A stretch of 64,000 bases of DNA from Oricola sp. (GTDB lineage Bacteria; Pseudomonadota; Alphaproteobacteria; Rhizobiales; Rhizobiaceae), in assembly GCF_022763245.1 (NCBI RefSeq), contig NZ_JALEGV010000041.1, forward strand, positions 355,223 through 419,222, written 5' to 3'. The translations under genes were made by a program, and so were the position numbers. A model generated the notes under the pieces. The model was not told where the DNA came from. It worked only from the letters and a program-made list of their open reading frames with translations, and did not search any database. Below, in pieces: positions 21,681 to 32,575 of the stretch; the first letter of the stretch is position 1; each line of letters opens with the position of its first letter.

Positions 21681-21770
21681 GGTGAGGTGGCCGAGTGGTT
21701 GAAGGCGCACGCCTGGAACGCGTGTAGGCGGGAAACCGTCTCCAGGGTTCGAATCCCTGTCTCACCGCCA
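21681..21770 (+). tRNA. tRNA-Ser (anticodon GGA), class II with long variable arm, CCA encoded
   Basis: Acceptor GGTGAGG/CCTCACC(U), D-arm GCC-GAGTGGTTGAA-GGC, anticodon stem CACGC/GCGTG with loop CUGGAAC, long variable arm, T-loop GGTTCGAATCC, G73, CCA, then a TTTTT run. Confidence 0.85.
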
Positions 21771-30546: not shown

Positions 30547-30951
30547 GGCGGCGGGCGGTCTCGCCCGTCCCGTCCGTTTGACTGCTCAGGCGAAAGCCAG
30601 TGTCCGGTTCTGCGCCTTGCAGCGGGACGCGCCATGCAGCATGTGCGCGGCCCACATAAGCAACGCCTTGTGTAACGTGCGATCGTGGTAGGAAAAGGTG
30701 GCTTTGCGCGCCTCTCATTTTCGCCTTGTTTTCGTACCGGCTTCGCCGCGAAGGCGTGACTTATTTATCACTGTGATCGTTGAGTGAAAACTCAAGATGA
30801 TTTCGCGCTTGCCTCTGCGATAAGCGTCGCATATCCGAGCGCTCCCGGTCGAATTACTGTGGCTGACGTCAACGGTTGAAGCTTTCGTCTTCACCCGCAT
30901 GGGCTTGCTTTGCTCGCACCATGTACGGATGCGGTCGCGGTGGTCGGTATT

Positions 30952-31026
30952 GCGCATGTAGCTCAGGGGAAGAGCGCCGGACTAGCCGTCCGGGCGTCGC
31001 GGGTTCGATTCCTGCCATGTGCTCCA
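30952..31026 (+). tRNA. tRNA-like gene with alanine identity pair G3:U70 but a non-canonical anticodon loop CUAGCCG (reads as anticodon AGC)
   Basis: A perfect cloverleaf can be drawn: acceptor GCGCATG/CATGTGC, D-arm GCTC-AGGGGAA-GAGC, anticodon stem CCGGA/TCCGG, T-arm GCGGG-TTCGATT-CCTGC, U73, CCA. The loop has U33 but C37 and G38. Confidence 0.55.
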
Positions 31027-31099
31027 ACTGGATAGCTCAGGCGGATAGAGCGTCAGACTGCAAATCTGATTGTCCCGGGTTCGAATCCCGGTCCAGCTC
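31026..31099 (+). tRNA. tRNA-Cys (anticodon GCA), no encoded CCA
   Basis: D-arm GCTC-AGGCGGATA-GAGC, anticodon stem UCAGA/UCUGA with loop CUGCAAA, T-arm CCGGG-TTCGAAT-CCCGG. The acceptor has one A2·C71 mismatch. It starts on the last A of the preceding tRNA's CCA. Confidence 0.65.
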
Positions 31100-31426
31100 G
31101 CAAGAGCAGCACCCTCCATACGGTGTTTCAGTAACTGGCGGTCCGGGGATTGGTATGCGGAAGGGCGGAGCTCCGTCGGCCTGCGGGTCGTGCGTGGCGA
31201 TGTCCCGATGCCTTGGCCTGGTGCCGGCTGACGGTGACGGTCGGGTTGCGCTTGCGCCGCAACGCCTGCGTTTTCGAACGCGGCGGAGCCGCGCCTGCGC
31301 CGTCCGACCCGCTCCCGAAGGCCCGCGGCGCGTCATGCCCGGTCTCCGGATTGTCGTCCGGGAAAATGAAGGAAACGAAGAAGGAAAGGACTGTCGCGTG
31401 ACATAGCACGACGAAAGGAGTTTGAG

Positions 31427-32575
31427 ATGAAGAGCCTGATAGACATTATACTTGGTCGCAGGCGCGTCCTCGTCACCGAGACGGAGCGCGTGCTGTATTT
31501 TCGAAAAGGCGAGGTCCGGGACATCTTGGGCCCGGGCGAGCACGTCATCGCGGATGACGGAAAGCGATCCGAGATCGTGCCCTACAGCGTGACCCAGCCG
31601 GATTTCACGTCGATCTATGCCAAGGCTCTTCTCGACAAGCTGCCAGACGTCGCGGCCCGTCACCTGACGGTCTACGTCACCGGCAAGTCGGAAGTCGCCG
31701 TGGTCGAGCGCGACGGACGGATCCACGCCGTCATGATGCCGGATCAGCAGCTCGTTCTGTGGACGGATGCCGGTCCGTGGTCGGCGCGCATGGTGGACGT
31801 GTCAGAGGAACTCGCCGTCGACACCGGACTGCGGCAGCGGCTGGCCCGCTCCGCGGCTGCCGGAAAGGCGATCACCCTCCACGCGGTGGGTGAGGGCCAG
31901 GCCGGCCTGCTCTACGTCGATGGCGAGCTCGCCACGACGCTGAAGCCGGGCGTGCACGGCTACTGGAACATCGGACGGGCTGTCCAGGTGAAGATCGTCG
32001 ATCTGCGTCGCCAGTCGCTCGACATCACCGGGCAGGAGCTCCTGACCAAGGATCGCGTGACGATCCGCGTCAACATCGCGGCTGAATACCGGGTCGTCGA
32101 TCCGGTGAAGGCCGCGACCGAGGTCAAGGACTATGCCGACGCCCTGTATCGCGCTCTGCAATACGCCGTGCGGCGGACGCTGGGCGCGATGACGCTCGAC
32201 CGGATCCTTGCCGACAAGGCGTCCGTCGATGACGATGCCGCCGAAAGGGTCCGCACCGAGATGGCCGGAATCGGGATCGAGGTCTACGACATCACCCTGA
32301 AGGACGTGATCCTGCCGGGTGAGATGCGTGAGATCCTCAACATGGTCGTGGTCGCCGAGAAGGAGGCCGAGGCCAACGTGATCCGTCGCCGCGAAGAGAC
32401 GAACGCCACGCGTTCGCTGCTCAACACGGCGAAGGTCATGGCCGAAAACCCGGTCATGCTGCGCCTGAAGGAGCTCGAGGCCCTGGAGGCCATCGCCGGC
32501 AAGGTGGAGCGCCTGACGGTCCACAACGGTACGGCGGGTCTCATGAACGACCTCGTCGATCTGCGGCGCGAGTGA
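31427..32575 (+). CDS. SPFH/band-7 domain protein with an uncharacterised ~180-aa N-terminal domain and no TM helix
   Basis: The C-terminal half (QVKIVDLRRQSLDITGQELLTKDRVTIRVNIAAEYRVVDP...EAEANVIRRREETNA) is SPFH/stomatin-like. RBS AAAGGAG lies upstream of ATG 31427. Confidence 0.7.
   Translation: MKSLIDIILGRRRVLVTETERVLYFRKGEVRDILGPGEHVIADDGKRSEIVPYSVTQPDFTSIYAKALLDKLPDVAARHLTVYVTGKSEVAVVERDGRIHAVMMPDQQLVLWTDAGPWSARMVDVSEELAVDTGLRQRLARSAAAGKAITLHAVGEGQAGLLYVDGELATTLKPGVHGYWNIGRAVQVKIVDLRRQSLDITGQELLTKDRVTIRVNIAAEYRVVDPVKAATEVKDYADALYRALQYAVRRTLGAMTLDRILADKASVDDDAAERVRTEMAGIGIEVYDITLKDVILPGEMREILNMVVVAEKEAEANVIRRREETNATRSLLNTAKVMAENPVMLRLKELEALEAIAGKVERLTVHNGTAGLMNDLVDLRRE

Follow-up and report, generated by a model that had tools for sequence, protein, structure and literature searches.

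The DNA analysed here is a stretch of 64,000 nucleotides (nt) from Oricola sp. (contig NZ_JALEGV010000041.1, positions 355,223 to 419,222 of the forward strand), hereafter the window, which is chromosomal DNA with a GC content of 62-70%. The locus in question comprises, in order, a GGDEF-EAL gene, TetR, DUF6920, a small glyoxalase/bleomycin-resistance-like gene, two elements resembling tRNA genes, an SPFH/Band_7 gene encoding a putative cytoplasmic slipin, malate synthase G (glcB) and a hydantoinase, with the slipin gene lying on the same strand as both elements. An initial annotation, based on the letters of this DNA, had read the two elements as an alanine-type tRNA with an aberrant anticodon loop and an abutting tRNA-Cys(GCA). 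The comparative evidence presented here makes it probable that these "tRNA genes" are non-decoding, tRNA-shaped domains of a conserved RNA, which is located in, or corresponds to, a leader of about 590 nt preceding the slipin gene.

The first element, referred to as domain 1 (30952-31026, plus strand), was called by ARAGORN as tRNA-Ala(agc), and the second, domain 2 (31026-31099, plus strand), as tRNA-Cys(gca), base 31026 being common to both. Each matched the Rfam tRNA model RF00005 (gathering score 29; E-values for the 64-kb window), domain 1 with 52.7 bits (E 1.8e-8) and domain 2 with 59.4 bits (E 2.6e-10). Domain 1 is a full cloverleaf, having an acceptor stem GCGCATG/CATGTGC with a G3:U70 pair, U8, a D arm GCTC-AGGGGAA-GAGC with GG in the D loop, an anticodon stem CCGGA/TCCGG, a T loop TTCGATT, and a 3' end formed by U73 and CCA. 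Its anticodon loop, CUAGCCG, places a C at position 37, and a possible C32-G38 pair would shrink it to 5 nt. Domain 2 has canonical D, anticodon and T arms and a 7-nt anticodon loop, combined with a weak acceptor stem (AACTGGA/TCCAGCT) which carries an A2.C71 mismatch, is followed by C73 and lacks CCA; the 3' strand of this stem overlaps a small hairpin, GCTC-GCAA-GAGC, at 31096-31107. ARAGORN, RF00005 and direct reading of the sequence therefore agree with the initial annotation on the cloverleaves, on the alanine-type acceptor features and aberrant loop of the first element, on the nucleotide which ends one element and begins the other, and on the irregular acceptor end of the second. Single-sequence minimum-energy folding did not return the cloverleaves and gave weak z-scores (-1.1 and -1.3). 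Since thermodynamics applied to one sequence does not recover them, the support for these structures comes from the covariance-model scores and from the comparative data.

Relatives of the locus were collected by scanning one genome per species with the slipin protein, which led to 80 loci with 62-68% identity, mostly from Mesorhizobium and also from Rhizobium, Neorhizobium, Methylocella, Nitratireductor, Metarhizobium and Novosphingobium. In 78 of these loci ARAGORN reported a tRNA-like element on the strand of the slipin gene and some 430-500 nt before it, and the two without a call have too little upstream sequence; an abutting or overlapping pair was found in 64 of the 80. Taken overall, about 75 of the 80 relatives are counted as having the tRNA-like RNA ahead of the slipin gene. 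As the flanking genes vary between genera, the conserved unit is the RNA together with the slipin. The same association emerged from the RNA side. A DNA pattern independent of the protein, consisting of the domain 1 T loop, CCA and the start of domain 2, was scanned on metagenome contigs and returned 24 loci, among which a hidden Markov model of the pair distinguished 18 true pairs (59.8-97.7 bits) from six ordinary tandem tRNAs (46 bits at most). For 14 of the 18 true pairs, tblastn placed a slipin homolog with 25-43% identity just downstream on the same strand; the contigs of the other four break off no more than about 440 nt from the pair. The slipin matches start at query residue 25-37 in 13 of the 14 loci, so that the N-terminal region of the protein is included. 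Neither the scan of viral contigs with the same pattern nor a phage tblastn search gave a match.

Closer and more distant orthologs revealed which parts of the two elements are maintained. In a Logan assembly whose slipin is 99% identical, both anticodon loops are the same as in the window. Marine contigs encoding a slipin with 75% identity, assigned by NCBI to an Ahrensia sp. metagenome-assembled genome, share the full synteny (TetR, DUF6920, a 125-amino-acid gene, a gap, slipin, glcB and hydantoinase) and keep both cloverleaf bodies, while the loops read CATCCG and CTTGTAA; in a third relative they read CGTCAA and CTGTAA. Across the relatives, the domain 1 loop ranges from 4 to 9 nt and is mostly TTTGGG in Mesorhizobium; because such a loop has 6 nt, ARAGORN mostly assigned to the first element an impossible anticodon of 2 nt. 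The "anticodon" of the second element would correspond to Leu, Met, Asn, Ile, Arg, Thr, Lys, Ala or a stop, with triplets including CAT, GTT, TAG, GAT, ACG, TGT, TTT and TTA. In domain 2 the D, anticodon and T stems are invariant, three to six acceptor pairs form, and CCA is never present. The D-, T- and anticodon-loop variants of this domain (columns 204-275 of alignment A1) occur in mosaic combinations among close Mesorhizobium species, and this distribution suggests that they arose by recombination or gene conversion and not by stepwise mutation.

None of the orthologs carries a canonical tRNA where the pair lies. With no standard tRNA in the orthologous loci and no conservation of the loops, the elements are neither decoders nor the result of recent local decay. 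The comparison of orthologous loci had been set beforehand as a test, and what it returned was kept bodies, changed loops and no standard tRNA. The suspicion that the first element is not an ordinary decoder was well founded, its loop varying in sequence and in length among orthologs. Two more specific proposals did not survive: a decoding oddity is contradicted by loops that vary in sequence and length on a body maintained with compensatory changes, and a recently decayed pseudo-tRNA by the lack of any ortholog with a canonical tRNA and by stems kept through compensatory changes. The neighbour, in turn, is a tRNA-like domain and not a tRNA-Cys(GCA): it has C73 rather than U73 and the A2.C71 mismatch, its triplet is not conserved, and its acceptor stem is truncated in relatives. 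The possibility that the pair represents the tRNA attachment site of an integrative element was also considered and rejected, the neighbours being TetR, DUF6920, the glyoxalase-like gene, the slipin gene and glcB, which keep their synteny in the ortholog with 75% identity. The PADLOC defence models gave no match.

The pair is embedded in a longer conserved region. At the level of the clade, a leader of about 590 nt (about 30839-31426) contains both domains and ends in a two-codon mini-ORF (open reading frame), and conservation runs unbroken from a promoter-like TTGCCT...CATATCC to the slipin start codon. The putative sigma-70-type promoter (30809-30836, plus strand), inferred from a -35 element TTGCCT at 30809-30814 and a -10-like CATATCC at 30830-30836, aligns with TTGCGA-N16-CTATAG in Mesorhizobium and other loci; a consensus promoter scanner gave no call for it. 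A conserved inverted repeat, TGTTGC-N6-GCAACA, is found about 60-80 nt upstream of the leader start in Mesorhizobium and Rhizobium (e.g. loci L063, L070 and L078) and could be the binding site of a regulator; it is not evident in the window. The 5' part of the leader (30839-30951, plus strand; alignment A1) starts with GCGCTCCCGGTC and has hairpins at about 30874-30895, 30897-30924 and 30926-30939. Downstream of the pair, two small hairpins span 31096-31125 (plus strand), the one overlapping domain 2 and CACC-N8-GGTG at 31110-31125; they were read from the sequence and not called by RNAalifold, and counterparts (GGCC..GCC and CACC..GGTG) are visible in the aligned relatives. They are followed by a multi-branched 3' domain (31140-31352, plus strand) enclosed by a long-range helix of 14 bp, which pairs 31140-31153 (GGTCCGGGGATTGG) with 31339-31352 (CCGGTCTCCGGATT). 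The 3' strand of this helix can alternatively fold as a local hairpin, CCGGA-TTGTCG-TCCGG, at 31339-31364, and equivalent alternative hairpins in Mesorhizobium and Rhizobium leaders suggest a structural switch.

RNAalifold, run on 33 leader sequences, predicted 107 pairs. Pairs changed on both sides by compensatory substitutions numbered 55, compared to 17-25 when the partners were slid by one to three columns; likewise, 96.2% of the cells formed a standard pair (39-46% when slid), 284 cells were changed on both sides (36-58 when slid), and none of 500 shuffles reached the observed values. Pairing was complete (100%) in both D arms and both anticodon arms as well as in the T arm of domain 2, and reached 93.5% in that of domain 1. 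Compensatory changes were found in helices 2-5 of the 5' part (e.g. columns 64/89, with UA in 17 sequences and CG in 16) and were many in helices 16-20 of the 3' domain, whose closing 14-bp helix (helix 14) was 99.4% paired with six covarying pairs. Helix 1, a predicted 3-bp helix between the 5' region and the mini-ORF region, was discarded as too short to rely on. In Rfam 15, even in permissive mode, the tRNA model was the sole match within the leader, on both tRNA-like parts.

The leader ends with a Shine-Dalgarno (SD)-like GAAAGGA (31384-31390), within a purine-rich stretch, followed by the mini-ORF GTG-ACA-TAG (31398-31406; together 31384-31406, plus strand). The slipin SD, GGAG (31417-31420), lies 10 nt after the mini-ORF and precedes the ATG of the slipin gene (31427-32575; 31417-32575 with its SD, plus strand; 382 amino acids). 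A start, one codon and a stop follow the SD-like site in 74 of the 78 loci with a parsable leader, and three more parsed loci have an ORF of one or four codons at this position. The syntenic ortholog and a second relative with 75% identity carry GTG-ACT-TAG and GTG-ACC-TGA; since these differ from the window by synonymous and stop-to-stop changes, translation of the mini-ORF is suggested, and with it translational control of the slipin gene. More distant groups without the mini-ORF have either a hairpin sequestering the SD or a terminator-like hairpin with a run of Ts behind it. In one lineage linked to tRNA arrays (L088 4215-4240, with equivalents in L094, L096 and L097), a GC-rich hairpin and five to seven Ts stand before the slipin SD in place of the mini-ORF, and look like a terminator or attenuator.

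Further relatives connect the module with RNA repair. A tblastn search of plasmid and chromid records found the slipin subfamily, at 35-40% identity, in Photobacterium, Burkholderia, E. coli, Citrobacter and Subdoligranulum, and Pfam identified the genes around it. In Burkholderia cenocepacia (L113) the order is a divergent RtcR, a sigma-54-type promoter (TGGCAC-N5-TCGC), the tRNA-like RNA, slipin, RtcB and RlaP; Photobacterium (L114) has a divergent RtcR, a tandem tRNA-like pair, slipin and RtcB; Subdoligranulum (L115) has slipin, RtcB and RlaP. The E. coli module (L112 4640-6877, from CP061233.1) lies between yjbD and lysC and consists of a sigma-54-like promoter (TGGCACgcttcTCGCA), a T-arm-like GGGTTCGATTCCC, slipin and RlaP. 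It is complete in 1625 of 5426 complete E. coli genomes, and has no RNA feature annotated upstream of its genes; the E. coli slipin, used as query, returned only near-identical E. coli proteins. RtcB also adjoins the slipin gene, on the same strand, in three metagenome loci (L095, L106 and L111).

RNA and slipin form a self-contained module, which stands alone in the Oricola genome. Beta- and gammaproteobacteria, Firmicutes and some alphaproteobacteria have the module within RtcR/RtcB/RlaP operons for RNA repair. In P. aeruginosa, PaFlo8 is embedded in the rtc locus (PMC13086221). In Anabaena, TrcR directly targets alr0739-alr0740, whose induction under translational stress accompanies that of rtcB, rsgA and the trn tRNA array (PMC10272220, PMC8421152), and alr0740 is a slipin-family gene (PMC10272220), comparable to the window slipin at family level only. 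Taken together, the evidence supports placing the slipin-associated RNA in the sphere of Rtc-type RNA repair or translation stress. A literature search for tRNA-like elements paired with SPFH, slipin or stomatin found nothing relevant.

Several observations weigh against the interpretation of the pair as part of one repair-related leader RNA. No RtcB, RtcR or RlaP was found by tblastn in the 64-kb window, nor at distances of up to about 4 kb from the slipin gene of Mesorhizobium-type loci, so that the link with repair is one of homology of the module and not of local context. nhmmer searches with the 5' and 3' leader domains gave no match in the divergent loci, where the mini-ORF is not detectable by sequence either; the pair is consequently the only part that is demonstrably family-wide, and part of the leader described above may represent clade-specific regulation. 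The acceptor end of domain 1 is also not universal: in a subgroup of Mesorhizobium the T arm is shortened and CCA is replaced by ACA, and the Photobacterium copy has neither G3:U70 nor CCA. In the light of these departures from an alanine-type end, alanylation cannot be the function of the whole family. Finally, the transcription start near 30839 is placed from conservation only, and processing, charging, binding by the slipin and the regulatory logic are deduced. What is constant throughout the family is the tRNA elbow and body, and not the anticodon or the acceptor end, which suggests that tRNA-binding machinery or the slipin recognises the domains. The alanine-type acceptor, the covarying 5' and 3' domains and the two-codon mini-ORF of the window are specific to its clade.

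The position of the domains, directly upstream of the slipin gene and on its strand, would also suit purely cis-acting signals for processing or stability, in which RNase P, with RNase E or Z, sets the 5' end of the slipin mRNA and releases pieces that have no function and are not bound by the slipin. RNase P cleavage within operon mRNAs has precedent; the elbow and acceptor stem of domain 1 suit this enzyme, and the clade-specific 3' domain and mini-ORF look regulatory. Such an explanation leaves unaccounted for why one slipin subfamily should keep these signals across phyla and promoter types, and why two domains are retained, together with G3:U70 and CCA in one clade. On balance it is considered unlikely.

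The behaviour of the loops raises another alternative, in which the domains are baits for anticodon nucleases: cleavage in the loop would cut the leader, or yield tRNA-like halves with 2',3'-cyclic phosphates that activate RtcR, and an arms race would diversify the loops. The domain 2 loop follows the tRNA-like pattern Y32-Y33-NNN-R37-A38, and its NNN positions diverge two to three times as much as the four-fold degenerate sites of the slipin gene (0.22 vs 0.08 and 0.49 vs 0.17), although such sites in a genome with 65% GC underestimate the neutral rate. Whole domain 2 loops are swapped among relatives (CTCATAA, TTGTTAA, TTTAGGT and others), and the module is linked to RtcR and RtcB; RtcR is reportedly activated by damaged tRNA fragments (attributed to Hughes et al., 2020). 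Against the bait explanation, the tetraloops of some loci (AACC in L088 and GAAA in Burkholderia) and loops of 5-6 nt are poor mimics of an anticodon loop, and neither a loop-complementary partner nor any further covarying site turned up. When k-mer complementarity between the loops and the rest of the leader was judged against shuffled loop assignments, neither loop had complementarity beyond chance; the sole signal was self-complementarity inside the domain 2 loop, and the mini-ORF codon had no match. This alternative is accordingly regarded as quite unlikely.

A genuine alanine-accepting tRNA, acting as a GCU decoder through A34/I34 or as a non-ribosomal alanine donor and only incidentally adjacent to the slipin gene, was the possibility closest to the initial annotation. 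Domain 1 offers it a complete cloverleaf with G3:U70 and CCA, features that recur in relatives: the 3:70 pair is G:U in 50 of 74, G:C in 12, C.A in six and G.A in two, while 54 of 74 have A73 and 62 of 74 have CCA. The C.A and G.A mispairs at 3:70 are also reported to support alanine identity, and where the pair is G:C a wobble or mismatch is often seen at 2:71 instead. The window itself has G3:U70 and CCA but U73, a combination compatible with recognition by alanyl-tRNA synthetase. Decoding is excluded, because the loop has C37, measures 4-9 nt in relatives and contains no conserved NGC triplet; a canonical decoding tRNA-Ala was rejected on the same grounds. Furthermore, the linkage with the slipin gene is obligate and not incidental, the acceptor identity features are absent from gammaproteobacterial copies, and no gene for a tRNA-dependent transferase lies near the elements. 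The suggestion of an alanine donor for aminoacyl-lipid or cell-wall synthesis thus finds no transferase to attach to, and a link with RtcB-type RNA repair was found in its place. Of the proposed alanine acceptance, what holds is that the acceptor features are conserved among relatives and that alanyl-tRNA synthetase (AlaRS) may charge domain 1 in alphaproteobacteria in a non-decoding role; what does not hold is a stand-alone tRNA gene. As a complete explanation of domain 1, with the slipin adjacency incidental, an alanine tRNA is very unlikely.

Some distant loci place the pair next to ordinary tRNA genes. A canonical, CCA-encoding array of 16 tRNA genes stops some 170 nt short of the pair in L088 (2314-3685), L094 (1791-3275) and L098 (2351-3753), and is partly present in L091 (60-544), with the isotypes Leu, Gly, Trp/Glu, Ala, Pro, Arg, Asp, Lys, Val, Met, Thr, Phe, Gln, Ile, Asn and His; these arrays resemble the horizontally spread L-arrays. 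Compared with the 16 tRNAs of the L088 array, the two domains have identities of 0.55-0.71, which do not discriminate a parent isotype. Inside the L094 array, ARAGORN called a permuted transfer-messenger RNA (tmRNA) at 2103-2647, overlapping several tRNA genes, and this is probably a false call. ARAGORN detected no array in the window, whose sole ordinary tRNA gene is a canonical tRNA-Ser(GGA) at 21681-21770 with a long variable arm and CCA. The arrays, the unconstrained anticodon loops and the degenerate acceptor stem of domain 2 could be taken to mean that the pair is a neutral relic, decaying pseudo-tRNAs from a former array or operon, which is extremely unlikely: decay would erase bodies as fast as loops, whereas the D, anticodon and T stems persist, through compensatory changes, across proteobacterial classes (25-68% protein identity) and the nucleotides of tertiary interactions (U8, GG and TTCGA) persist. 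The pseudogene and decoder readings are effectively excluded.

The protein partner gives the module further context. The slipin matches Pfam Band_7 (E 1.3e-35) and a stomatin structure in the PDB (E 1e-26), and its relatives are named "slipin family protein" by NCBI; no Pfam domain covers the N-terminal 150 residues. An AlphaFold2 model (pLDDT 82.8) is composed of three five-stranded beta repeats (residues 11-54, 80-124 and 149-192), an SPFH core and a long helix, and its fold matches stomatin, HflK and the major vault protein. Residues 1-192, with their three similar beta repeats, together with the SPFH core and helix reproduce a domain order like that of the major vault protein; this vault-like architecture is a lead and does not demonstrate that the assemblies are homologous.

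A mechanism can be proposed on these grounds for the conserved leader RNA. The leader would be made from its own promoter, and the intact elbows formed by the D and T arms would make the domains substrates or ligands of RNase P, of CCA-adding, modification and RtcB/RlaP-type repair enzymes, and/or of the slipin. The RNA would then serve a slipin assembly as its cognate partner, scaffold or bait in a response to tRNA damage or translation stress, in parallel with Y RNA and Ro60 in rsr-yrlBA-rtcBA operons. Cleavage at the junction of the two domains would free domain 1 with its CCA end, which in the clade of the window AlaRS could charge through G3:U70 regardless of the loop, and domain 2 would stay on the mRNA, with the 3' domain and the mini-ORF coupling slipin translation to the status of the ribosome. 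A bolder version, which is tentative and unlikely, would make the RNA of about 590 nt an undescribed class of large structured RNA, a cis sensor of tRNA damage or ribosome stress which releases an alanine-chargeable, anticodon-less tRNA mimic as partner or cargo of a vault-like slipin cage. If true, this would be a bacterial counterpart of the vault or Ro-Y RNA ribonucleoproteins.

Several known systems invite comparison, among them the vault particle, made of major vault protein and vault RNA. Another was reportedly described by Burroughs and Aravind (2016, Nucleic Acids Res 44:8525), in whose account of RNA-repair systems a "novel tRNA-like molecule" and SPFH/Band-7 modules are said to be cognate partners. 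The likeness lies in a Band-7/slipin gene preceded by a tRNA-like RNA, with RtcB, RlaP and RtcR, a context found again here for Burkholderia, Photobacterium, Subdoligranulum and E. coli. The copy in the window differs in having no Rtc genes nearby, two full cloverleaves, an alanine-type domain 1, and a covarying leader of about 590 nt with a mini-ORF in which the pair is embedded. The Y RNAs (YrlA/YrlB) and Ro60 share with the module a tRNA-like non-coding RNA beside a ring- or cage-forming protein in an RtcB operon controlled by RtcR and sigma-54, and bacterial Y RNAs mimic tRNAs (PMC4201824). YrlA (RF02553) was rejected as an identity, scoring 26.7 bits against a gathering score of 69, with no TROVE among the neighbours scanned; a Y RNA has one tRNA-like module, a Ro-binding stem and a TROVE partner, whereas the window RNA has two complete cloverleaves and an SPFH partner.

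tmRNA is similar in combining a tRNA-Ala-like acceptor (G3:U70 and CCA) and an mRNA-like part with a short ORF in a context of translation stress. It was likewise rejected, ARAGORN giving no tmRNA call in the window and both domains being contiguous cloverleaves; a tmRNA builds its acceptor from the two ends of the RNA and encodes a tag-peptide frame, while the window RNA has anticodon arms and a mini-ORF with its own start and SD. The horizontally spread tRNA arrays, finally, are supernumerary tRNA genes tied to translational stress, and alr0740 is co-regulated by TrcR with such an array and rtcB. The tRNAs of the Anabaena array are canonical, with real anticodons, and 23 of 26 are aminoacylated (PMC8421152, PMC10272220), whereas the pair in the window is non-decoding and stands apart from any array.

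Elements of this kind are likely annotated as odd or pseudo-tRNAs in many Proteobacteria, since ARAGORN gives them assorted or unassignable anticodons. Recognising one RNA family tied to one protein subfamily corrects counts of tRNA genes and supposed oddities of codon usage. It also provides an uncharacterised slipin with a candidate RNA partner and with a setting, that of Rtc RNA repair, translational stress and tRNA arrays. With one RNA and one gene the module is small, and tractable organisms carry it, among them Burkholderia, Mesorhizobium, P. aeruginosa and some 30% of the complete E. coli genomes; the idea that bacteria respond to tRNA damage with an SPFH-RNA particle is therefore open to direct testing.

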